A DNA stretch of 64,000 nucleotides, from assembly GCA_965226055.1 (NCBI GenBank), contig CBDDCA010000006.1, positions 258,251 to 322,250 of the forward strand, written 5' to 3'. The notes below the pieces were generated by a model. It did no database searches. It saw only the letters and a list, made by a program, of their open reading frames with translations, and was not told the DNA's origin. Position 1 is the stretch's first letter. Every line of letters starts with the position of its first letter. The translations under genes were made by a program, and so were the position numbers. Source of the DNA: Spirochaetia bacterium (lineage in GTDB: Bacteria; Spirochaetota; Spirochaetia; WTKD01; G963693115). Shown here in pieces: positions 48,014 to 60,906 of this stretch.

Positions 48014-48765
48014 TTTCTGTTAATAAGTACTTGTCTATTTAAAAATAAGAATAGAGCCGATACTGCAAGATAATATATAACATCTCTCGTATCAATAAGC
48101 CCTTTTACAAAACTGTCAAGATGTGTGGGCAAAGCAATATAGTCTATAAGCTGTGCTAAAAAACGTGGCAAGGCAGGCAAATTTGGAAGATATGCTATAA
48201 GGGTAAGCAAAAAAAGCACAAGTGCAGTTAAAAGGAAATTAGATATTTGATTTTTCGAAAGCGATGAGAGAAAACACCCAAGACTCACTTCGGTAGTAGT
48301 AAGCAGTATAATACCCAGATAGTTTGCAAAAAGTACGCCTAGCTCAAAATCACCAAACGGCAACAACGATAGCGTAAGAATAGTATTTATTACAATCATC
48401 ACAAGAAACAAGCTCAATGCCCCTAAAAACTTTCCTAACACTAACTGCCATTCAGTAAAAGGAAGGGTAAGTAGTAATTCATCTGAACCCGTTTTTTTCT
48501 CTTCTGACCATGTACGCATCGTTACCGCTGGTACTACTATAATAAAAAATATAGGAATAATACTAAAAATAGTGCGAAAATCTGCCCTATTTTGCACAAA
48601 AAATGCTTGAAATTGAAATGTCCATAAAGAGACAATCAATGTAAAAAAGAAAATAAGAATATATGCAATGGGAGAGCTAAAATATTGTTTTAACTCTTTT
48701 TTTACTAATATAAATGTCATGCTACTCTCCTGATTGTTTAGTAATTTTTTCAAAAATGGATTCAA
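48004..48765 (-). CDS. ABC-2 type permease (GldF-like)
   Basis: This polytopic membrane protein is 253 aa as listed in the ORF track. The probable true start is Met16 (ATG 48720), one nt after the ATPase stop codon. Confidence 0.75.
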   Translation of the reverse strand: MNPFLKKLLNNQESSMTFILVKKELKQYFSSPIAYILIFFFTLIVSLWTFQFQAFFVQNRADFRTIFSIIPIFFIIVVPAVTMRTWSEEKKTGSDELLLTLPFTEWQLVLGKFLGALSLFLVMIVINTILTLSLLPFGDFELGVLFANYLGIILLTTTEVSLGCFLSSLSKNQISNFLLTALVLFLLTLIAYLPNLPALPRFLAQLIDYIALPTHLDSFVKGLIDTRDVIYYLAVSALFLFLNRQVLINRKWR

Positions 48766-49663
48766 GGCTGGTACTTTTTTGACTTAATTCCCGTAATCGG
48801 ATACGCTCTTTACTTGCCCAATCAAAAAATATCTCACCTTTCATATACTCAGATAAACCAGTGATAATAACCTTCGTGGAATCATCTTTTTCTTCAACAA
48901 TGTCTACTTTATTCACTCCCTCAACATTTCCTAGAGAAAGCACTGTTTCTTTAGGAACATTGCCTACCAACTCTAAGGAAAATATATCTTCTCCTTTTAG
49001 CTGATGAGATATTTCCTCACTTGTTCCTTCTGCTACAATTTTTCCTTCATTTACAATAAGCACACGCTTACATAACACTTCAACTTCTTGTAGTATGTGA
49101 GTAGAGAGAATAACTGTTTTTGTTTCTCCTAGTTCTTGAATAACTTTCCGTATTTCTTTAATCTGATTTGGGTCTAGTCCTGATGTAGGTTCATCTAAAA
49201 TAACTACTGCAGGATCATGGATAATAGCCTGTGCAAGCCCTACCCTTTGCCTCATTCCTTTTGAAAGACTGGAAATAGGTTTGTACACAAAATCACTAAT
49301 ACCACAACGCTGTATTCCCTTATCTATTGCAGCACCTAAGTCTACCGAACTAATGCCTCTCGCTCTTCCAATAAACTGCAAGTACTCATACACGAGAAGA
49401 TCTTCGTACAGTGGAGTAGTTTCGGGCAAATATCCGACTTGCGATTTTGTAAAAACAGTGTCTTCCACCACACTTTTTCCTGCTATCTTTACTGTTCCAC
49501 TATGTGGATTATGATAGCCTGTTATCATTTTCATAATAGTAGTTTTTCCTGCCCCATTAGGACCAAGGAGACCCACTATTTCTCCTTCAGGTACAAAAAA
49601 ACTTACATCTCTTACTGCTGTAAATGTATCATACCTTTTTGTTACATTTTTTAATTCAATCAT
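48722..49663 (-). CDS. ABC transporter ATP-binding protein (GldA-like)
   Basis: 313 aa. It carries GPNGAGKTT, LSKGMRQRVGLAQA and ILDEPTSGLDP. Confidence 0.92.
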   Translation of the reverse strand: MIELKNVTKRYDTFTAVRDVSFFVPEGEIVGLLGPNGAGKTTIMKMITGYHNPHSGTVKIAGKSVVEDTVFTKSQVGYLPETTPLYEDLLVYEYLQFIGRARGISSVDLGAAIDKGIQRCGISDFVYKPISSLSKGMRQRVGLAQAIIHDPAVVILDEPTSGLDPNQIKEIRKVIQELGETKTVILSTHILQEVEVLCKRVLIVNEGKIVAEGTSEEISHQLKGEDIFSLELVGNVPKETVLSLGNVEGVNKVDIVEEKDDSTKVIITGLSEYMKGEIFFDWASKERIRLRELSQKSTSLESIFEKITKQSGE

Positions 49664-49835
49664 ATGATAGAAATCCTCCTAGTCAATAGAGTTAATATTG
49701 TGTAATGATCAACTATTTATTTAAACTTTACTCCAGTATACAAATATACTAAACACTATGCAAGAGTTACGGGGAATAATTTTTGGGGAAATTAGAGGGT
49801 ACATTAGATAGTAGAACCATAAGTTTGTACTGTTT

Positions 49836-50699
49836 TTAATGAGAGATACTATTAACTTTTAAACTATCTTTGAAAAATAATATTTCTTTTCCATTCTTAG
49901 TTTTATTAGCAAAATGTTTTAGAATAAAAGGTTTTCTATTTTTTACCCAAGAAAAATTTTCATTTATTTCCTCTTTATCATCATAAGAAACAATCCAAGA
50001 AAATTTTTTAATATTTTTAATTTTTTCACTTAAGATTTTATGCTGATCTTGTTTATAAAAGTTTAAGTATAAATCTTTTCCTTTATTAAAATAGGGAGGA
50101 TCAAAATAAAATATTGTCTGCTTATTTTTTTCTTCTTTTTGAATTTTATCAATTAGTTCTAAAACATCTAGATTATGCAGAGTTATTTGTTCTTTATACC
50201 TTGCTATTAATTTGATTTTTTTTATTATTGTATCTTTATTGAATCTACAATTTAATTTATATTTTCCTTTTTGTTTTAAGCCTCCAATAGGACCTCCTTT
50301 TAAAATTCCTGAAAAATTTGCCCTATTTAAAAATAATGTAGAAAAGCCTACCTCTAATGATGAAAAATTTTGTATCTCTTTTTGTATTTCTTTTTGTTTT
50401 TTCCAATTTTCTATACTTATTTCTGTATCATGTATGAGTGTGCATAACTCATCAGTTTTATTCAAAACACAATACCAAAAAGAATAAATAGATTTGTCTA
50501 AATCATTTAAAGTTATTTTTTTAAATTTATTTTCTAATAAAAGATATAAACCAACTGAAGCTCCTCCACAAAAAGGCTCTACATAATGATCATTTATTTT
50601 ATTATCAGTGCAAATTTGAGAAATAAATTTTGAAAGCCTATTCTTTCCTCCTGGATATCTTAATGGTGAATAAAATTTATTTTTAATCATTTTTACCAT
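49836..50699 (-). CDS. Dam-type (D12 class, alpha) N6-adenine DNA methyltransferase
   Basis: 287 aa. LRYPGGKNRL and EPFCGGASV (AdoMet motifs) precede FYFDPPY (motif IV), the order seen in E. coli Dam. The local G+C is very low. Confidence 0.88.
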   Translation of the reverse strand: MVKMIKNKFYSPLRYPGGKNRLSKFISQICTDNKINDHYVEPFCGGASVGLYLLLENKFKKITLNDLDKSIYSFWYCVLNKTDELCTLIHDTEISIENWKKQKEIQKEIQNFSSLEVGFSTLFLNRANFSGILKGGPIGGLKQKGKYKLNCRFNKDTIIKKIKLIARYKEQITLHNLDVLELIDKIQKEEKNKQTIFYFDPPYFNKGKDLYLNFYKQDQHKILSEKIKNIKKFSWIVSYDDKEEINENFSWVKNRKPFILKHFANKTKNGKEILFFKDSLKVNSISH

Positions 50700-51969
50700 A
50701 GTAATGCTTTAATATTTTCCCTACAATTTTAGAACACTGTAAAATATTTGTTTTATCATATTCAATATTTGCGTGAGCATATTTTGCTAATAACGATTCA
50801 AAATCAGAATTTTTTTTCAAAATGTCTGTGCCAATACTATTGAAATTTAATTCTTTTTGATCTAACATATCAGATGCTTTAATTTCTTTCATAAATTCTC
50901 CAAAAACAGCATCATCACTTGCTCGTTTATCTCCCTCATTTTCAAAATATTTTCTTCCAGCAGCCTCCATTATTAGTCTCAAAGACATACCTATAATAGG
51001 TAAGATATTTTTATCTCTTTTAAATGTTTCATAAATTTCATCTAGTATACTATACAAATCATTAACTTTTCCTTTTTTTAGTTCTAATTTTTCTCCAAAT
51101 AAAGTATCTACGATTGCTTTATCTCTAGGAGTTTTTCTTAGTTTTTTTTGTAAATTATTATCTTTTATCACATTCTTGCTACTCTGTTCTGTAAAATTTC
51201 TAATATTTAATTCTTTATCATCAATTAAAGGTTTTATTGATCCTCTATTTTTTCTTGTACTTATTTGTTTACTTTGAATCAATTGTATTAATTTTTCAAA
51301 AATTAATTGTAATTTTTCATCCTTTTCATATGAAGGATAAACACTCTCTAATTTATTATTTGAATCAAAATAAAAACCTAATTTGTAAAAATTATCTACA
51401 GTCAAAATTTCTGTTTTAATAAAATTTTGATCTAGTGCTTTATAATTCTCACTTATTAAATGTGTTGCTTCTTCAATTTTTAAAAATAAACTTTTTTCCT
51501 TTTTCAAATGATAATGATCAAAATAATCTTGTTGTAAAGCAGACCAAGTATTATTTCTTATATTATCTGCTTGTATAATTGTTAATGCTGTTTTCTCATT
51601 ACATAAAACACAAGAAATTTCTTTTAAGTTTACTAAATTTTTTGGTGGACTAGATGGAAATAATTTTTTTTCTATTACAACAGACCATTGTGGATTTTGT
51701 AAATATTTTAATACTACTATTCTTTTATTACCATCATAAACAATATGTTTTTTATTTTTAAAAACAACAATTGGTAATTTATTAAGATGATAGAAATCTC
51801 CCATTTCTTCAATTAGCTTTGGAATATTCCATTTATCTCTATCATCCTTTATGGCTTTTTTTATTATTTCTAAATCTCCAATATCTTCTCCAATTGGATC
51901 TCTTGGATTTTCAGTCCATAAATGTAATTCCGATATTTTTATCTCTTTGATTTTTTGATCATCACCCAT
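50683..51969 (-). CDS. ParB N-terminal (ParB/Srx nuclease-like) domain protein with an uncharacterised helical extension of about 330 aa
   Basis: 428 aa. IKISELHLWTENPRD and VYDGNKRIVVLKYL correspond to the ParB-N box (..NPR.. and DG.RR). I could not assign the remainder by eye. Its 3' end overlaps the methylase start by 17 nt. Confidence 0.65.
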   Translation of the reverse strand: MGDDQKIKEIKISELHLWTENPRDPIGEDIGDLEIIKKAIKDDRDKWNIPKLIEEMGDFYHLNKLPIVVFKNKKHIVYDGNKRIVVLKYLQNPQWSVVIEKKLFPSSPPKNLVNLKEISCVLCNEKTALTIIQADNIRNNTWSALQQDYFDHYHLKKEKSLFLKIEEATHLISENYKALDQNFIKTEILTVDNFYKLGFYFDSNNKLESVYPSYEKDEKLQLIFEKLIQLIQSKQISTRKNRGSIKPLIDDKELNIRNFTEQSSKNVIKDNNLQKKLRKTPRDKAIVDTLFGEKLELKKGKVNDLYSILDEIYETFKRDKNILPIIGMSLRLIMEAAGRKYFENEGDKRASDDAVFGEFMKEIKASDMLDQKELNFNSIGTDILKKNSDFESLLAKYAHANIEYDKTNILQCSKIVGKILKHYYGKND

Positions 51970-52016
51970 ATATTTAATTCCTCCACCTCTCTTGCTTAAT
52001 CTACTTAATAAGTATA

Positions 52017-52958
52017 CTAATCTTTCAATGGAATTGTAAACACTTGCCTTTCTCTACAACATACGAGTGAGTCGAATATATTTTTTGCTTCTTTTTCAAT
52101 TTCTCCAATATCATTTAATGTATAACGAGGGCTAAAATGCAATAATGCAGCTTGGGTAACACCTCCACTTTCTTTCACCATTTGTGCAGCTTCCACCCCT
52201 GTTAAGTGTAATTTTTCTTTTGCTGCCTCCAAGTGTTCTTGCTTAAACATTCCTTCAATAAACACTAAGTCTGAACCTGCCATTTCTTGCACAATATCGG
52301 GCGTTGGACGTGTATCGGTAACATATACAATTTTTCTTCCGCTCCGTGAAGCCCCTAATACTTGATGAGGATAGTATGTTTTTTCGTCAATGGTAATTGT
52401 TTCTCCTCGCTGTAATGTTGCCCAGTGGGGACCTCGCGGTATGTTCAGCTGCACTGCCTTTTCTACATCAAATCGGCCTGGCCTCTCATGTTCAATAAAA
52501 GAAAAACCCCATACTTTACGGGTATGTTTTCCGAGAAATGTTTTGATATGAAATTCATTTTTTTTGTGACAATATACTACAGACTGATTATCCAGTTCTT
52601 CTAAAATAACATACTCTATATCAAAGTTAATGTACATACCAAGACTACGCCTTGTAGCTTCAATAAACTCTCTCACTGCTGCAGGACATACAATAGTAAG
52701 AGGAATATCACGCCCTACCTGTGAAGAGAGCATCAACAGACCAGGCAATCCCGTAACATGATCAGCATGAGAATGACTAATACATACTACATTGATTTTT
52801 TTCCAGCTTACAGAAGCCTTACGTAAACTCAACTGCAAGCCTTCACCACAATCAAACAATATCTCATCAGATCCACGTCTCAGCAATACAGACGACAAAT
52901 GCCTTCGAGGAAGAGGCAGAGACCCACTTGTTCCCATTACAATAGCTTCGAGAATCAT
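52017..52958 (-). CDS. rnz: ribonuclease Z (metallo-beta-lactamase fold)
   Basis: 313 aa. It carries GTSGSLPLPRRHLSSVLL, FDCGEG and the ISHSHADHVTGLPGLL (HxHxDH) motif. Confidence 0.85.
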   Translation of the reverse strand: MILEAIVMGTSGSLPLPRRHLSSVLLRRGSDEILFDCGEGLQLSLRKASVSWKKINVVCISHSHADHVTGLPGLLMLSSQVGRDIPLTIVCPAAVREFIEATRRSLGMYINFDIEYVILEELDNQSVVYCHKKNEFHIKTFLGKHTRKVWGFSFIEHERPGRFDVEKAVQLNIPRGPHWATLQRGETITIDEKTYYPHQVLGASRSGRKIVYVTDTRPTPDIVQEMAGSDLVFIEGMFKQEHLEAAKEKLHLTGVEAAQMVKESGGVTQAALLHFSPRYTLNDIGEIEKEAKNIFDSLVCCRERQVFTIPLKD

Positions 52959-54195: not shown

Positions 54196-54283
54196 ACTTA
54201 CTCCTATTGATTAAAATATATTACATGGTATTTTACATTATATTAAAACAATGGTATTGTTGCAGTAACTTATTATTGGGGAT

Positions 54284-54692
54284 CACGAGTTCAAGGATTA
54301 AATGCGACAAAGGAGCAAAAAAAGTAAGAAAAATAAAACAAAGCATATTTTTATTAGCTACTACATATAGTGTATATTTAGTATATAATTTTCAATTTAA
54401 GCACTAGAGAAATTTGCTTTATTTTTATATTAATGTTATACTAAATGCAGAATAATAAGAGAACAATAACATTATGAGTGTACAAGTAAAAACTGATACA
54501 AAAGAAACTACTTTAATTTTAAATAATACCGATAAGGAAAATTTGGAAAGATGTTTCTCGGAATGGAAATTCAAAGATTATCAAAGTCTTATGAGGTTCG
54601 TATCATCTATTTTAATTGAGAGCGAAGATAAAATAACAATAGGCATTAAGAAAAGTGGAGTGCTAAAAGAATTTTCACCAGCAGACCATTTA
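54284..54692 (+). repeat. about 400-bp dispersed repeat (copy 2): IS30 IRL-like sequence, leader and small ORF; it matches 26867..27266
   Basis: See copy 1. The first 55 nt or so (gatcacgagttcaaggattaaatgcgacaaaggagcaaaaaaagtaagaaaaa) are identical to the left end of the intact IS30 element 500 bp downstream. Confidence 0.9.
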
Positions 54693-54731
54693 GTAAACGA
54701 TGTCAGAACCTCAGAACAACCAAAAAAGTAG
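54474..54731 (+). CDS. small hypothetical protein (85 aa), paralogue of 27048..27281 with a different C-terminal tail
   Basis: It is identical to the 77-aa protein except A5V, up to ...EFSPADHL. It then reads VNDVRTSEQPKK in place of LKDS. Confidence 0.55.
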   Translation: MSVQVKTDTKETTLILNNTDKENLERCFSEWKFKDYQSLMRFVSSILIESEDKITIGIKKSGVLKEFSPADHLVNDVRTSEQPKK

Positions 54732-54783: not shown

Positions 54784-55866
54784 CACGAGTTCAAGGATTA
54801 AATGCGACAAAGGAGCAAAAAAAGTAAGAAAAAATAAAAAAAGGAGACACTCTATAATTGTATAAACGAAACAAATTAGGAGGTCTCCTTTATGAGTATA
54901 CCAAAAAACTCATTTCGTCATCTGACAGAGAAAGATCGTACTATTATCGCTACGCTCCGTCATGCAAAGTACAGTGTCAATGCTATAGCCAAACGCCTCA
55001 GTGTCCATCGCAGCACTGTCTATCGTGAAATACAACGCAATGGGGGCAAACGTGTCTATAATGAAGTCATTGCTCACAGACGGGCAAGAAAACGATGGGA
55101 ACAGAGTCATACAAAACACTCTGTTCTTTCTCATACTATTCGTACCTATATCGTTTTTCACCTTATTTTCGATGGCTGGTCGCCCGAACAAATAGCAGGA
55201 AGGCTCAGTATTGATATGCCTCAGTATGCTATCAGTCATGAGACGATATATCACTTTATTTACCGTTTCGCTCCTCATTTGACACAGTATCTGCGAAAAC
55301 AGCACCAAACACGCAAAAAAAGAACCATATCTCACTCTTTTTCTGTTTCTCGTATCCCTCATCGTGTCTCAGTACACGAACGAGGCGATGTTTCTAATGA
55401 ATATGGCCACTGGGAAGTAGATCTTGTTGGCTCTTCTTCAAAAGCTACTGTGCTTGCTTTAGTGGAAAAACATACCCGTTATGTTCTTTTTCATAAGATA
55501 CCTGACAAAACTGCTCATACCGTACAGTATGGCATGCTCTTTGCTCTAAGGAACATACCACGCCATTTATGTAACAGTTTCACTTATGATAATGGGAGTG
55601 AATTTATGCTCCATACTGAAATAAATACACGCTTGAATGCTCGTTCTTATTTTTGTACTCCTTACTGTGCTTGGGAAAAAGGATTAGTCGAACATTCTAT
55701 TGGATTATTACGTCAGTACTTTCCTAAGAAGACTTTGTTTCATAGAGTCAAGCAAAGTGATATACTACAAGTACAAACGCTTATCAATCATAGACCACGA
55801 AAATGTCTTCATTTTTTGACCCCTGCTGAAGCCTTTTCTGTCGCATTTAGTCCTTGAATCCGCACT
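54784..55866 (+). mobile_element. intact IS30-family insertion sequence, about 1.08 kb
   Basis: The IRL is cacgagttcaaggattaaatgcgacaaaggagc. The reverse complement of the right end (55833-55866) is gtgcggattcaaggactaaatgcgacagaaaagg, sharing the core TTCAAGGAyTAAATGCGACA. There is a single transposase ORF inside. The exact termini are uncertain by a few nt. Confidence 0.85.
54892..55857 (+). CDS. IS30-family DDE transposase
   Basis: 321 aa. The N-terminal HTH reads LTEKDRTIIATLRHAKYSVNAIAKRLSVHRSTVYREIQRN. GHWEVDLV, TYDNGSEF and EHSIGLLRQYFPK are the D, D and E blocks typical of IS30 transposases. An RBS aggagg lies 8 nt upstream. Confidence 0.92.
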   Translation: MSIPKNSFRHLTEKDRTIIATLRHAKYSVNAIAKRLSVHRSTVYREIQRNGGKRVYNEVIAHRRARKRWEQSHTKHSVLSHTIRTYIVFHLIFDGWSPEQIAGRLSIDMPQYAISHETIYHFIYRFAPHLTQYLRKQHQTRKKRTISHSFSVSRIPHRVSVHERGDVSNEYGHWEVDLVGSSSKATVLALVEKHTRYVLFHKIPDKTAHTVQYGMLFALRNIPRHLCNSFTYDNGSEFMLHTEINTRLNARSYFCTPYCAWEKGLVEHSIGLLRQYFPKKTLFHRVKQSDILQVQTLINHRPRKCLHFLTPAEAFSVAFSP

Positions 55867-56190: not shown

Positions 56191-59100
56191 GTGCTAGCAA
56201 TGACTACCCTCGTACTTGTAGGATGTGCAGAGAGTAGCAACAATTCCTCATCAGGCGGAGGGGGAAAACAGGTAACCCCGACACTCGCATCAGTGTCCAA
56301 TGTGCAGATACAAGCAGCAAGCAACGATGGGACGCTCTCGTTACGCTGGCAAGCTCCCAGCGAAGCCACGCATGTAGTAGTAAAAGCTACATCAACTGCG
56401 CCAGCACAATCTATACAGGTGCGTGTTCCTGCAATAGAATATCGTGCATTGTTTCAACAAAACAGACCCTACACCCTCAGAGGCTTGCATGCCACTACCG
56501 ATTATACAGTAGAGATAGAAGCACAAAAATCAGACTCAGAAGTATCACCAAAAACAACACGCTCTGTGACAACACTGATCGATGAAACTGCACCACAGGA
56601 CACTTTTACACGGGTAGCAGTAGAGAAAGCACAAAACGATAGTATAAAGCTAACATGGGACAAAGCACTGCTATCGTCAGGCAAGACAGACATAGCCGAA
56701 GCCACAATACAGGTGATAGAAAGAACTACTAATGTAAGGGCAGAAGTATCAGTACAAGATGTAACACAAGGAGAGGTGAGCATTGCTGTCCCCACTATAG
56801 ACGGCATAAGCTATGATATAGTAGTAGTATACAAAGATAGCAACGGTAACGAAAGCACAGCAAAGCAAGCACTCAGAGGCATAGTGCCATCAGCACTCTC
56901 ACAAACAGTAACGCCACTTTCCGCATCAGACCTTACAGTAACAGCAAACGATAAAAGCAATAGCCCAGCCGATGAAAGCCTGCTTATTATGTGGGATGAT
57001 AAAGATGACAGCTTTGACTTTTCAAACAAAAGCCTCCAAGTACGCGTTATAGCAACCGCAACAAATACAGTAGTAGCAGAGGAGACAATAGACAAAGATA
57101 CAAGTGCAACAAATGTCAGCGGAGCAAGTGCAGACAACCAAGAGTACGCCACTGTGTATGTAGCAAAAGATGGCATAGCACTCACAAAACTCTATGGCAC
57201 GCTTACCTACAAAGTAGAAGTGTATGTTTCTCAAAACGGAAAGTACTCCACTGCAGTGTCAAAAGAACAAGCAACAACAGACAAAAGCACAGAGCCTGTA
57301 AGCAATGTAAGTGCCGTAGGAGGAGCAACAAGCATAGTAGTAGGCTGGCAAGCCCCCGATGTACGAGATTATGCAGGAGTGACTATAACAGTAACAGAAA
57401 AGGACAGCACAACAGCAGCAAAGACAGTGACAATAACAGAGAGAACAGTACGCAACACACAGATAACAGACCTCAAAGCAACCACCGAGTATACAGTGGC
57501 AGTCGTATCAATGGACAGTGCAGGCAACAAAGGAACAGAAGCAACAGCCACAGTCAGCACATCAGCAGATAGCACCGCCCCCGATGCAGTAACAAGCATA
57601 CAAGCAAGCTATCCTTTTGTATCAGCAGCAAAGATAGGCACACAGATAACATGGACAGCACCCGATGCAGCAAAAGCAAAGAACAAAGACATAAAAGAAT
57701 ACAGCGTAAGCATAGCAGAAAAAGGCACAAGCACCACAGTACTGAGCGAGAAGAAAATACCCTATCCCACAAAGTCACTCTCTGTAGAAGAACTTGTGCA
57801 AGGCAAAACATATACCATAACAATACTCACGCTTGATTACTCAGAAAACAAAAGTAGCCAAGCCACAAAAGACATAACAACCCCCAACTCACTCACAGCT
57901 CCCTCAGAAGATCTCTTTCAAAGCAAGCCTACCCTTGACAAAACAGGAGCTATACAGATAAAAGCAACTTTTAAGAATGCTCCAAGCATAGGACGATACT
58001 ACACCTTGCGTATGAAAGAGGGAGCTACCTTAATAGCAGAAAAAAGCATAACAAACACAGCAATCACCATTAGCTTTGGGATAGCAGATGGCTTAGAAGT
58101 ACCTAAGAGCCAAGCAAATGCCAAGAATTATCGCTTTGATTTTCTGCAAATAGCAAATAACAGAGTAAGTCCAGTAACCGCACTGAGTGATGCAGTAGCA
58201 GTATACGATAGCACCTCGACAGCACCGCCCGCTCCCAAAGATGCAAAGCTCTCCGTAGAGTCAGTAACCCAAACAACTGCAAAAGCAGTCTATACATTTA
58301 GTGCAGGAGACATTACTGATACCAACAAAGCACCCAGCGGAAGCAAACTCACACAGGCACAAATACAATACAAAGTATACATAGCAGCAGGAGACCACAG
58401 CACAAAAACACTAGACGAAATAAAAGCCCTTGCAGGAGTACAAACAAGAGAGCTAGCAGGAAACAGCACTCCATTAAAAGCAACATTTATAGGAACGAAA
58501 GGAGCAGACTATACCGCAGGGGTAGAAGCAATAAACAGCCTCAATCCATCATATAGTACAGGAGCATCAGTAACAATAAAGAAAGCAACACTTACTGCTC
58601 CCCCAAGCACACCAAAAGTAACAACCTACACTAACAGTAATGCAGTGGTATTTGCAGTGCCTACCACAGGAAGTAACAGCGGGAAAAAAGTCATAACAGT
58701 ACAACTCAATGCCTCAGACATAGCAGGAGTGAGCAAGGCAAATGGCAATGCCCTTGAAGCGACAGACCTTGCCTACTATGTGCTATACCTCAAGAAAGAA
58801 GATAGCACAGGAAAGCCTGCCAGCGTATCAGCACTATGGGCAACAGAAAAGAGCAGTACAAGAGTGGCAAAATACACAAAAGCAACAGGAACAACTCAAG
58901 ACACAATATCCATAGCAATAGTAGACAGCACCAGTGGAAGCAATGCAGGAGCCACACCCATAGAAACAGCAAAAGACTACTACATAGGAGTAAGGATAGT
59001 CAACACAACATCCCCCAATTACGATGCAACAAATAGCGACAAGCTCTTTCCTGCAGGCTTTTACACCGATGTAACAGAAATAAAGGAAATCTATACTTCC

Positions 59101-60906
59101 AAAGCAGTAGCACCCAGCCAGTCATTACTCACAGGAAAGCTGGTAGTATCACAGTCAACAAATACTACAGGCACAATAAAGCTGGTACTTACCGAGCTAA
59201 ATACATTTACAGGAGCAAAAGACTACGATGGCACAAACATAACAGCAAATGACAAGCTAGTATACACAGTGTATGGCTTACAGAAAGACACCACTCCTAC
59301 AGTAGCAGAAGTACTTGCAGGCAGAAAAGTAAACCTAGGCAGTGCAAGTAGCGGAGTGTACACAGTACCAGCTCTTGCCAGTTTAGGCTTATCTTCAGAC
59401 ACAGCACCAGTAGTAGCAATAAAAGGAGCGACAAAGTATTACTTTGTGGTAGAGGTAGCAATAAAAACAGACCCTAGCAAGAAAGTAGCATCCTCAACAG
59501 TAGCAAGCGTAACAACCGCATCGCAGGCGACCGCCCCCGCAGAAGTAAGCAGTATACAGACAAGAGTAGCCCAGACAGGCATGAGAGTATCGTGGACAGC
59601 CCCCAGCCTCAGTGCAAGCCACAAAGCAAATACAGGCGATGCCCTAACAGTAGCACAAGTATCGTACAAGGTATACAAAGTAGCTAAGGGAGGCAGTGCA
59701 AAAAGTGTAGCAGCAATAAAACAAGCAGACTCAAGTCCTACAACAGTAGCAGCAGGAACAACAAACACTACCCTGACAGGATTGACAAACGGAACGACCT
59801 ACGAAATAGTAGTGCAAGCAGTAAACAGCACCGATGATACAAAAGCATCCACTGGACTACGCCACGAGTTTGAAGCAAGAGGAATAGCTATAGGAAACAC
59901 TAGCATAGTCTCAGCAGAAGTAGGCAAAACGCCAGCAATAAATATTACAAGAGTACTTACCAGTAACTCTGCCTTTACCTGTGATGCAAACATACTAGAG
60001 GCAGATGCAAAGAAGATAAAACAAGAAACAGGGCTAGCAGTATCGTTTGATCAGAGTAGCAAAACAGTTACTATAACAGGCATAGCAAATAAGTCTAATA
60101 TACGAGATACAGCCATTACTGAGTATAACTATGCTGTAGCACAGTGTACAATAACCGCTTCAAAGAAAAAAGTGCCAGCCACCATCGTGATACAGACAGA
60201 GCTAAGAACAGCACCATCAGGAAAAGCAGAAGCCTATTACAGACCAACAACAAAGGCACAGCTTCAAACTATTATCAGTGAAGAAAAGACAAGGCAAGGT
60301 TCAGGAGGAAACAGTAACCCTAGCCCCAACCTCAACATGATAGACACCAGTGCTATTACTGATATGAGCCAATTATTTCAGAATGATACTACTTTTAATG
60401 GAGATCTAACACAGTGGAATACCAGTAATGTAACGAGAATGAATGGTATGTTTACTGATGCAAGTGTTTTTAATCAAAATATAGGAGATTGGGATACAGG
60501 AGAAGTTATACATATAGGTAGTATGTTTTTTAGAGCAAGTGTTTTTAATCAAAATATAGGAAGCTGGAATATAAGTAAAGTTAAAAATATTGATAGTATG
60601 TTTGCTAGTGCCAGTGCTTTTAATCAAGACATAGGAAATTGGGACACAAGCAATGTTATTAATATGAGTACTACATTTTTGAGTGCAAGTGCCTTTAATC
60701 AAGACATAGGAAACTGGAATGTAAAGAATGTCGATTCTATAACTGGTATGTTTAACGGAGCTTCTACATTTGATCAAGATTTATCATCATGGATATTGTG
60801 TAAAGCAAGTCTCACTTTTTTGGAGTTCGAAAATTCGGCTATGGATGGAAAAACAGCAAAGTACCCGACAGTAAAGCGTCAAAGTGATCCAGCATGTACA
60901 TCGTAA
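56191..60906 (+). CDS. large surface lipoprotein with multiple FN3-like domains and a C-terminal DUF285/BspA LRR block; the 5' end is out of frame with its probable true start at 56099
   Basis: 1571-aa ORF as listed (GTG start). The lipobox is TLVLVGCAES. Numerous FN3-like units are present, for example VSNVSAVGGATSIVVGWQAPD...TEYTVAVVSMDSAGN. One unit at 59518..59877 is homologous to the 1791..4043 repeats. The C-terminus reads NLNMIDTSAITDMSQLF followed by six 23-aa DUF285 units. The upstream ATG 56099 with RBS aaaggag is separated from this frame by the G15 tract. Confidence 0.85.
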   Translation: MLAMTTLVLVGCAESSNNSSSGGGGKQVTPTLASVSNVQIQAASNDGTLSLRWQAPSEATHVVVKATSTAPAQSIQVRVPAIEYRALFQQNRPYTLRGLHATTDYTVEIEAQKSDSEVSPKTTRSVTTLIDETAPQDTFTRVAVEKAQNDSIKLTWDKALLSSGKTDIAEATIQVIERTTNVRAEVSVQDVTQGEVSIAVPTIDGISYDIVVVYKDSNGNESTAKQALRGIVPSALSQTVTPLSASDLTVTANDKSNSPADESLLIMWDDKDDSFDFSNKSLQVRVIATATNTVVAEETIDKDTSATNVSGASADNQEYATVYVAKDGIALTKLYGTLTYKVEVYVSQNGKYSTAVSKEQATTDKSTEPVSNVSAVGGATSIVVGWQAPDVRDYAGVTITVTEKDSTTAAKTVTITERTVRNTQITDLKATTEYTVAVVSMDSAGNKGTEATATVSTSADSTAPDAVTSIQASYPFVSAAKIGTQITWTAPDAAKAKNKDIKEYSVSIAEKGTSTTVLSEKKIPYPTKSLSVEELVQGKTYTITILTLDYSENKSSQATKDITTPNSLTAPSEDLFQSKPTLDKTGAIQIKATFKNAPSIGRYYTLRMKEGATLIAEKSITNTAITISFGIADGLEVPKSQANAKNYRFDFLQIANNRVSPVTALSDAVAVYDSTSTAPPAPKDAKLSVESVTQTTAKAVYTFSAGDITDTNKAPSGSKLTQAQIQYKVYIAAGDHSTKTLDEIKALAGVQTRELAGNSTPLKATFIGTKGADYTAGVEAINSLNPSYSTGASVTIKKATLTAPPSTPKVTTYTNSNAVVFAVPTTGSNSGKKVITVQLNASDIAGVSKANGNALEATDLAYYVLYLKKEDSTGKPASVSALWATEKSSTRVAKYTKATGTTQDTISIAIVDSTSGSNAGATPIETAKDYYIGVRIVNTTSPNYDATNSDKLFPAGFYTDVTEIKEIYTSKAVAPSQSLLTGKLVVSQSTNTTGTIKLVLTELNTFTGAKDYDGTNITANDKLVYTVYGLQKDTTPTVAEVLAGRKVNLGSASSGVYTVPALASLGLSSDTAPVVAIKGATKYYFVVEVAIKTDPSKKVASSTVASVTTASQATAPAEVSSIQTRVAQTGMRVSWTAPSLSASHKANTGDALTVAQVSYKVYKVAKGGSAKSVAAIKQADSSPTTVAAGTTNTTLTGLTNGTTYEIVVQAVNSTDDTKASTGLRHEFEARGIAIGNTSIVSAEVGKTPAINITRVLTSNSAFTCDANILEADAKKIKQETGLAVSFDQSSKTVTITGIANKSNIRDTAITEYNYAVAQCTITASKKKVPATIVIQTELRTAPSGKAEAYYRPTTKAQLQTIISEEKTRQGSGGNSNPSPNLNMIDTSAITDMSQLFQNDTTFNGDLTQWNTSNVTRMNGMFTDASVFNQNIGDWDTGEVIHIGSMFFRASVFNQNIGSWNISKVKNIDSMFASASAFNQDIGNWDTSNVINMSTTFLSASAFNQDIGNWNVKNVDSITGMFNGASTFDQDLSSWILCKASLTFLEFENSAMDGKTAKYPTVKRQSDPACTS

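Follow-up and report, generated by a model that had tools for sequence, protein, structure and literature searches.

A two-gene island at positions 49789..51984 of a 64,000-nucleotide stretch of DNA from a Spirochaetia bacterium (GCA_965226055.1, contig CBDDCA010000006.1, positions 258,251 to 322,250; the whole stretch is referred to as the window) was analyzed computationally. The island holds gene A, which codes for a ParB/HEPN protein, and gene B, which codes for a D12-class N6-adenine DNA methyltransferase. It is probably an anti-phage defence module of the PD-λ-5 type that was acquired horizontally, with B as the self-marking methylase and A as the effector or sensor. A first-pass annotation of the same DNA had proposed an undescribed module resembling restriction-modification (R-M) and knew of no named system of this kind. 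This claim of novelty has to be withdrawn since PD-λ-5 was named and its phage protection shown in 2022 (PMC9519451), and PADLOC models of this system matched both genes. It is further undercut by fusions of ParB and HEPN domains beside DNA-modification genes, which have been known since 2013 (PMC3632139).

PD-λ-5 was discovered by functional selection in Escherichia coli ECOR7 and is listed there as 'ParB/HEPN, methyltransferase' (Vassallo et al. 2022, Nat Microbiol, PMC9519451). The HHpred table of that study assigns residues 6-89 of PD-λ-5A to ParBc (96%) and gives weak DUF4145/HEPN hints for the C-terminal part. The E. coli system protects broadly, against nearly all phages tested, and was characterized as 'a compacted RM+Abi system', Abi standing for abortive infection (PMC9519451).

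Gene organization and relationship to PD-λ-5

Both genes are encoded on the minus strand, gene A at 50683..51969 (428 aa) and gene B at 49836..50699 (287 aa), between the gene of an ABC-transporter ATPase (48722..49663) on one side and rnz (52017..52958) on the other. The coordinates of the open reading frames (ORFs) bear out the 17-nt overlap read earlier (50683..50699, minus strand), and the motifs quoted for the two proteins are all present in the sequence (LHLWTENPRD and DGNKR in A; YPGGK, EPFCGG and DPPY in B). Gene B contains two in-frame ATG codons (M1 and M4; window 50688-50699), and alignments with its homologues begin at about residues 5-11. Its true start may be M4, in which case the overlap with A would be 8 nt. 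The overlap suggests translational coupling of the two genes.

Gene A matched nothing in Pfam or NCBIfam; the canonical PD-λ-5A members likewise have no Pfam match. In PADLOC, 15 PD-Lambda-5_A models matched A, the best with an E-value of 1.6e-10. The whole clade of A, whose members are about 430 aa long, reaches at most 54 bits on the PADLOC A models and falls outside the 2023 model set. Reference-type PD-λ-5 loci were gathered by searching with B. In the P2-like Vibrio phage ValB1MD-2 (locus L083), A consists of two ORFs with an overlap (PDLC03995, 4e-109 and 2e-69), and B comes directly after them. A Vibrio maritimus plasmid (L089) carries an intact 513-aa 'ParB/Srx family N-terminal domain-containing protein' (7e-190), the gene of which overlaps that of a 'DNA adenine methylase'. 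In Rugamonas brunnea (L065:6001-8623), a decayed A of the window type with two in-frame stops is directly followed by an intact canonical A (PDLC04013, 7e-165) and then by B, which looks like the replacement of one A variant by another beside the same methylase.

With the canonical A of Rugamonas brunnea, 252 homologues were collected, 32 of which were aligned to give a canonical PD-λ-5A profile. Comparison of the A clade with this profile by hhalign yielded a probability of 95.6% and an E-value of 1.3e-8 over 402 columns, end to end, and the ENPR, GNRR, R-H...W, STR, LR..E and HG motifs were co-aligned. When the domains were compared separately, the N-terminal domains matched each other with an E-value of 6.9e-12 and the C-terminal domains with 8.5e-5 over 101 columns. 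All six controls with mismatched domains remained at E-values of at least 0.07. The C-terminal test became usable only with the 32-sequence profile; hhalign comparisons of the A clade with the single Vibrio C-terminal half and with four reference C-termini were not significant. The Vibrio phage C-terminal half itself retrieved one protein in a word-indexed search and only near-identical Vibrio records by tblastn. On these alignments, A is to be regarded as a divergent yet genuine PD-λ-5A of the same architecture.

Split forms of PD-λ-5A were also encountered. In the Vibrio phage locus (L083:1946-3498), one ORF codes for the ParB half of the protein and a second, overlapping it by 4 nt, for the HEPN half. 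A further protein, P0121, is a free-standing 258-aa homologue of the C-terminal half. Such split forms may thus be real and need not reflect frameshifts.

Gene B was assigned to the D12 class by Pfam (PF02086, 4e-18), and its S-adenosylmethionine-binding and DPPY motifs are intact. The match to the PADLOC model PD-Lambda-5_B (PDLC04018) was strong, with an E-value of 1.6e-110, residues 8-285 aligning to model positions 3-278 of 291. Furthermore, B shares 43% identity with the PD-λ-5 methylase of the reference-type Vibrio phage locus. The earlier description as a Dam-class D12 N6-methyladenine (m6A) methyltransferase was right about the D12 class. The score on the Dam equivalog TIGR00571, at 59 bits, is below the cut-off of 114.85 for an orthodox Dam methylase. 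Because of this low score, GATC specificity of B cannot be assumed.

Methylases of the B type were also observed in two prophages, L081:1631-4319 (Citrobacter phage phiNP) and L082:1693-4346 (Streptococcus phage Javan645), where they are 44-48% identical to B. In both, an AAA ATPase like that of A/B loci precedes the methylase, and there is no ParB/HEPN gene. The B-type methylase thus seems to pair modularly with different partners.

Linkage of A and B across genomes

A word-indexed search retrieved more than 300 full-length homologues of A, and an exhaustive profile search with A gave 153 representative clusters at E ≤1e-30 and 1,208 at E ≤1e-3. Among the GTDB species representatives, 190 relatives of A were found and 80 loci were kept; together with three viral contigs, 83 loci were compared. 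The 80 genome loci belong to Bacteroidota, Alpha- and Gammaproteobacteria, Spirochaetes, Fibrobacteria, Actinobacteria, Patescibacteria and Nano-, Woese- and Pacearchaeota. A homologue of B (35-63% identity) adjoins A in every genome locus (80/80) and on every viral contig (3/3). Direct adjacency in the order A to B on the same strand was found in 59 of the 80 genome loci, many with overlapping genes or gaps of less than 30 nt, while 13 loci are convergent, seven have an inserted gene and one has B upstream. Similarity to the A of the window and similarity to its B co-vary over the loci (Spearman 0.48, p 4e-6). Few members of the clade reside on viral contigs (three loci), and tblastn of A against phage and plasmid collections returned nothing.

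The inserted gene encodes an AAA_15/AAA_21 ATPase in six of the seven cases, with PADLOC matches to ATPase-Toprim, PtuA, AriA, AbiLi, GajA and Old. Counting all positions, an OLD/AbiL/PtuA-like ATPase of 520-600 aa adjoins A/B in 24 of the 80 loci, or about 30% (L002-L006, L011, L015, L017, L032, L042-L049, L051, L053, L055, L060, L061, L069, L077). It lies upstream of A or between the two genes in some loci and after B or in the convergent arm in others. The ATPase looks like an optional third component of A/B; it is absent from the window locus and from the E. coli reference. In gut Alphaproteobacteria, A/B stand beside the ATPase, a Type III R-M system and RhuM, with AbiEii in one variant and outer flanks that vary by contig. 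Some A/B pairs occupy clear defence islands. The survey of co-occurrence proposed in the first-pass annotation accordingly came out in favor of a linked pair, and the architecture of modification plus effector that it had suggested is backed by base composition, by a cargo swap at the site (see below) and by linkage in 83/83 loci.

Horizontal acquisition and borders of the island

The visible AT richness of the two genes had previously been taken as an argument for horizontal acquisition from hand counts. Formal calculation gave a G+C content of 23.1% for A and B together (A 23.7%, B 22.2%) versus 39.4% for rnz, 36.4% for the ABC ATPase gene and 34.7% for the whole window. Among 619 windows of 2,134 bp (standard deviation 3.3%), A+B has the lowest G+C content. 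The G+C content at third codon positions was 11-12% for A and B compared with 23-28% for five flanking genes.

Independent support came from a sister genome (L088), the 2.36-Mb contig ERZ25071788 ctg26443_14x_c, which was reached via protein-cluster members of the flanking genes. In the cluster look-up, rnz and the ABC ATPase have relatives of at least 90% identity on this contig, whereas A and B have none there. The synteny is the same as in the window (FabV-rnz ... ABC-transporter), and the flanks are 97% identical on both sides by blastn. Since homology to the sister genome stops at window position 51985 and resumes at 49788, as read from the blastn breakpoints and junction alignments, the inserted island spans 49789..51984. 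These 2,196 bp have no homology to the sister genome and contain only genes A and B, with non-coding margins of 15 nt upstream of A (including GGAGG) and 47 nt downstream of B. Neither target-site duplications, border or flanking repeats, a tRNA, a mobility gene nor Rfam elements were found at the island borders. Thus, base composition, the breakpoints and the cargo swap together support horizontal acquisition of the A/B island, and comparison with a related strain defined its borders as the first-pass annotation had envisaged.

At the same site, the sister genome carries a different cargo of 4,073 bp. It includes a gene for a 782-aa protein (L088:9088-12125) with HTH_OrfB_IS605 and Cas12f1-like TNB domains and weak PADLOC matches to Cas12f/Cas12u4. 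This gene is followed by a CRISPR array of eight 36-nt repeats (TTTGTAGGGAGTGTTATTTTTGACCCTAACTACAAG) at 66-nt spacing, and a DUF4468 protein is also part of the cargo. No cas1 or cas2 was found among the called genes of the locus. It represents a compact type V-like CRISPR locus, the effector of which is distantly related to the PADLOC Cas12f/Cas12u4 models. Since a Cas12-like gene and a CRISPR array are present there, the rnz/ABC-transporter junction is a small hotspot with defence cargo in both genomes, either PD-λ-5 or a minimal type V CRISPR system.

The ribosome-binding site of A, GGAGG (51980..51984, minus strand), is located 10 nt ahead of the ATG and at the island border, as seen in the sequence and the junction alignment. 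The sole strong promoter-like site upstream of A, TTTACA-18-TATACT (52011..52040, minus strand; 10/12 match), lies in the conserved flank at the 3' end of rnz and is also kept in the sister genome. It could drive whichever cargo fills the site; this is only suggestive, the evidence being weak, and the region holds as many promoter-like sites as shuffled sequence yields. No terminator-like sites were found at the locus, and the whole 64 kb window contains no tRNA genes and no Rfam families at the gathering threshold.

A second strain-specific difference was observed near the island, where homology to the sister genome ends at window position 54283. Just past this position lie an 85-aa ORF (54474..54731) and an IS30-family transposase gene (54892..55857; HTH_38 and rve). 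Further on, a surface protein is probably encoded by a 1,571-aa ORF (window 56191-60906) that contains DUF285 and fibronectin type III repeats. The G+C content of this ORF, at 43-47%, is unusually high for the window, and its AT skew of up to 0.56 is very strong.

Domain architecture of gene A

The structure of A was modeled with AlphaFold2 on a 40-sequence alignment, which resulted in a mean pLDDT (predicted local distance difference test) of 84 with low confidence at residues 266-285 and 377-387. In this model, residues 1-100 (51670..51969, minus strand) form a ParB/Srx-like N-terminal domain with a ParB-N/sulfiredoxin fold, a GxxR-type phosphate-binding motif and predicted binding of nucleoside triphosphates (NTPs). 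The family alignment is invariant here at L17, W18, E20, N21, P22 and R23 (LW.ENPR) and at D79, G80, N81 and R83 within DGN(R/K)R. Structural matches to ParB-N/sulfiredoxin folds scored 6.5 for pNOB8 ParB, 6.5 for Srx, 6.4 for KorB and 6.0 for PadC. Foldseek placed CTP-bound ParB and Noc on top, and because these alignments cover 240-270 columns, the likeness to ParB/Noc reaches into the helical middle of A. The ParB/Srx N-terminal domain recognized by eye in the first-pass annotation is thus borne out by structure comparison.

The middle part, residues 101-265 (51175..51669, minus strand), is helical to mixed, with a pLDDT of about 90, and contains conserved PCNVC, ERKH..W and RDYF blocks. 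C120, W142 and R239 are invariant in this part, which is possibly a ParB-like DNA-binding region. A variable linker follows at residues 266-285 (51115..51174, minus strand), with a pLDDT below 50 and gap-rich, length-variable alignment columns.

For residues 286-428 (50686..51114, minus strand), which belong to the stretch previously left unassigned and put forward for a fold search, the model shows a four-helix up-down HEPN fold. N303, R331 and H399 are invariant in this domain. The canonical HEPN motif Rx4-6H was not found in A, where K396 precedes H399 (KYAH) and R331 is located in an earlier helix. Canonical PD-λ-5A has the same C-terminal pattern, LR..E ... VHG. Neither PD-(D/E)xK, HNH, GIY-YIG, PLD nor any other recognized restriction-endonuclease fold was detected in A by profile and structure search, and a profile search of the A clade against PDB sequences gave nothing meaningful. 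A role of A as a partition protein or KorB-type regulator was considered and rejected, as no ParA is encoded in the neighborhood and the methylase adjoins A in 83/83 loci.

Proposed mechanism and alternative explanations

NTP binding is known for ParB/Srx proteins, which are also able to nick DNA, ATP serving as the switch. ParB-fold nucleases have been listed as one type of nuclease domain in R-M systems that modify N6A, and phage loci combining ParB and methylase genes are known (PMC4738411). Fusions of ParB with HEPN occur alongside DNA-modification systems and have been suggested to be suicide or backup modules (Makarova et al. 2013, PMC3632139). In the mechanism considered most likely, B would label the host chromosome as self, and A would be the effector or sensor. 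The N-terminal ParB/Srx module of A, with its ENPR and GNRR motifs of nucleotide-binding type, would engage DNA under nucleotide control. The helical middle region resembles the DNA-engaging part of ParB/Noc clamps. According to R-M-like logic, A would act on DNA that lacks the methyl mark of B, while the HEPN domain would provide a second output, probably RNA-directed and possibly abortive, in the sense of the 'compacted RM+Abi system' of the E. coli study. An R-M-like defence reading of A/B is reasonable; the activity of A as a nuclease or RNase, the need for methylation and the split into a sensing and a killing domain are inferred only.

Several points weigh against assigning the island to PD-λ-5. 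Phage protection is known for the E. coli ECOR7 system only, and no mechanistic paper on PD-λ-5 was found in the literature searched. The PADLOC matches of A are weak, at most 38 bits and mainly within residues 1-280. Homology of the C-terminal domain to the canonical form is moderate, with an hhalign probability of 60%, and the comparison of the middle regions is not significant alone (E 0.32). Since Rx4-6H is missing and R331 and H399 are 68 residues apart, RNase activity of A is uncertain. Moreover, the genes around the island in the window are housekeeping genes and do not form a multi-system defence island.

B could be an orphan or epigenetic methylase and A its ParB/HEPN regulator, which would bind DNA or a nucleotide and adjust methylase expression or activity, with no restriction involved. 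DndB, likewise ParB-like with HEPN, has been described as a negative regulator of the dnd modification genes, the ParB-like part of A is closest to the CTP-switch DNA clamps and repressors ParB, Noc and KorB, and the HEPN-like domain of A lacks the catalytic motif. Still, this role is unlikely given that the E. coli homologue, built in the same way, conferred protection against nearly all phages tested, that A/B are found with R-M and Abi genes and at a site otherwise holding CRISPR-Cas, and that invariant polar residues are kept in both domains of A over very long evolutionary distances. The Rugamonas brunnea locus can be read both ways, as one copy of A has decayed there while B is intact, but the second, intact canonical A means that B does not stand alone. 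Quite unlikely, too, is a plain Type II-like R-M system in which the ParB-like domain of A is a sequence-specific endonuclease for the site of B and the HEPN domain is structural only, serving dimerization or DNA binding. The ParB-fold nucleases of N6A R-M systems (PMC4738411), the nicking of DNA by ParB/Srx proteins with an ATP regulatory switch, and the gene order, overlap and strict linkage, all typical of R-M, agree with it. In addition, cloning of PD-λ-5 required a strain deleted for the mrr region (PMC9519451), which would fit an active adenine methylase. This explanation is opposed by the absence of a detectable PD-(D/E)xK, HNH or GIY-YIG fold in A, by the invariant Arg and His in the C-terminal part, which are shared between clades and argue for a second activity, and by the ATPase in about 30% of the loci, a kind of partner seen more with Abi or backup effectors.

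The first-pass annotation had also allowed for a partition remnant of a decayed mobile element. A decayed phage or plasmid remnant, i.e., a ParB-methylase locus for partition, packaging or anti-restriction with no current host function, would be in line with the reference-type PD-λ-5 loci in a P2-like Vibrio phage and a Vibrio plasmid, with known phage ParB-methylase loci and with the tiny, strongly AT-rich island. It was rejected as highly improbable: both ORFs are full length and A holds every family-invariant residue, the borders are clean with exactly two genes inside, and the flanks are free of phage, plasmid and ParA genes. Only three loci of the A clade are on viral contigs, and the phage and plasmid collections contained no tblastn match. 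For the preferred PD-λ-5 assignment, a mechanism lacking precedent can be tentatively outlined, although it is rather doubtful. A would be a nucleotide-gated ParB-like clamp that is loaded onto DNA or slides along it and reads the m6A of B, and unmethylated invader DNA would switch on a non-canonical HEPN nuclease with an active site formed by an Arg and a His on different helices. Restriction would then act at least partly on RNA, in place of a classical restriction endonuclease, and the clade of about 430 aa, which occurs in bacteria, CPR and DPANN archaea, would with its optional OLD-like ATPase be a widespread minimal form.

Significance

The name and the validation of this type of system date from 2022, and a standard defence annotator recognizes it. 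The present analysis adds that PD-λ-5-like pairs are far broader than the enterobacterial and Vibrio prophage examples and that a compact clade, poorly covered by PADLOC models, is spread over Bacteroidota, Proteobacteria, Spirochaetes, Actinobacteria, Patescibacteria and DPANN archaea. Also added are the ATPase in about 30% of the loci and, for this lineage, the small rnz/ABC-transporter hotspot alternating between PD-λ-5 and minimal type V CRISPR. ENPR, GNRR, R239, N303, R331 and H399 are ready targets for mutagenesis.

Comparison with known systems

The closest known system is PD-λ-5 of E. coli ECOR7 (RCQ13837.1/RCQ13838.1; 'PD-Lambda-5' in PADLOC and DefenseFinder), which has the same order of a ParB/HEPN gene followed by a D12 methylase gene, overlapping or tightly coupled. 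The co-oriented two-gene arrangement with A before B also occurs in the reference-type loci of the Vibrio phage (L083) and the Vibrio plasmid (L089). The A of the island has in common with it the ENPR/GNRR N-terminal domain, conserved blocks in colinear order and R...HG motifs at the C-terminus. It differs in its length of about 430 aa as compared to about 500 aa for the E. coli/Vibrio type, and the island is a 2.2-kb chromosomal islet, not located in a prophage.

DndB and the COG1479/DUF262-HEPN proteins (PMC3632139) resemble A in combining an N-terminal domain of the ParB superfamily, with a motif of the DGxxR type, and a HEPN domain beside DNA-modification genes. However, the motif reads DGNRR here, as against DGQHR or DGQQR in these proteins, and A is partnered with an m6A methylase in place of dnd or pgl genes. 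In Pfam, no significant sequence match of A to DUF262 or DndB was found.

In structure, the ParB/Noc/KorB clamps are the best Foldseek matches (6sdk, 7nfu, 7bnr, 8qa8) over the N-terminal domain and the helical region, and counterparts of the NPR and GxRR boxes are present in A. In contrast to these clamps, A has neither a ParA partner nor a partition context, a HEPN domain replaces the ParB dimerization domain, and the gene is linked to a methylase. Type II R-M systems with Dam-family methylases such as DpnII likewise couple a D12 methylase to a gene presumed to be active on unmodified DNA. They differ from the island in that A has no recognized restriction-endonuclease fold and B scores below the Dam equivalog threshold.

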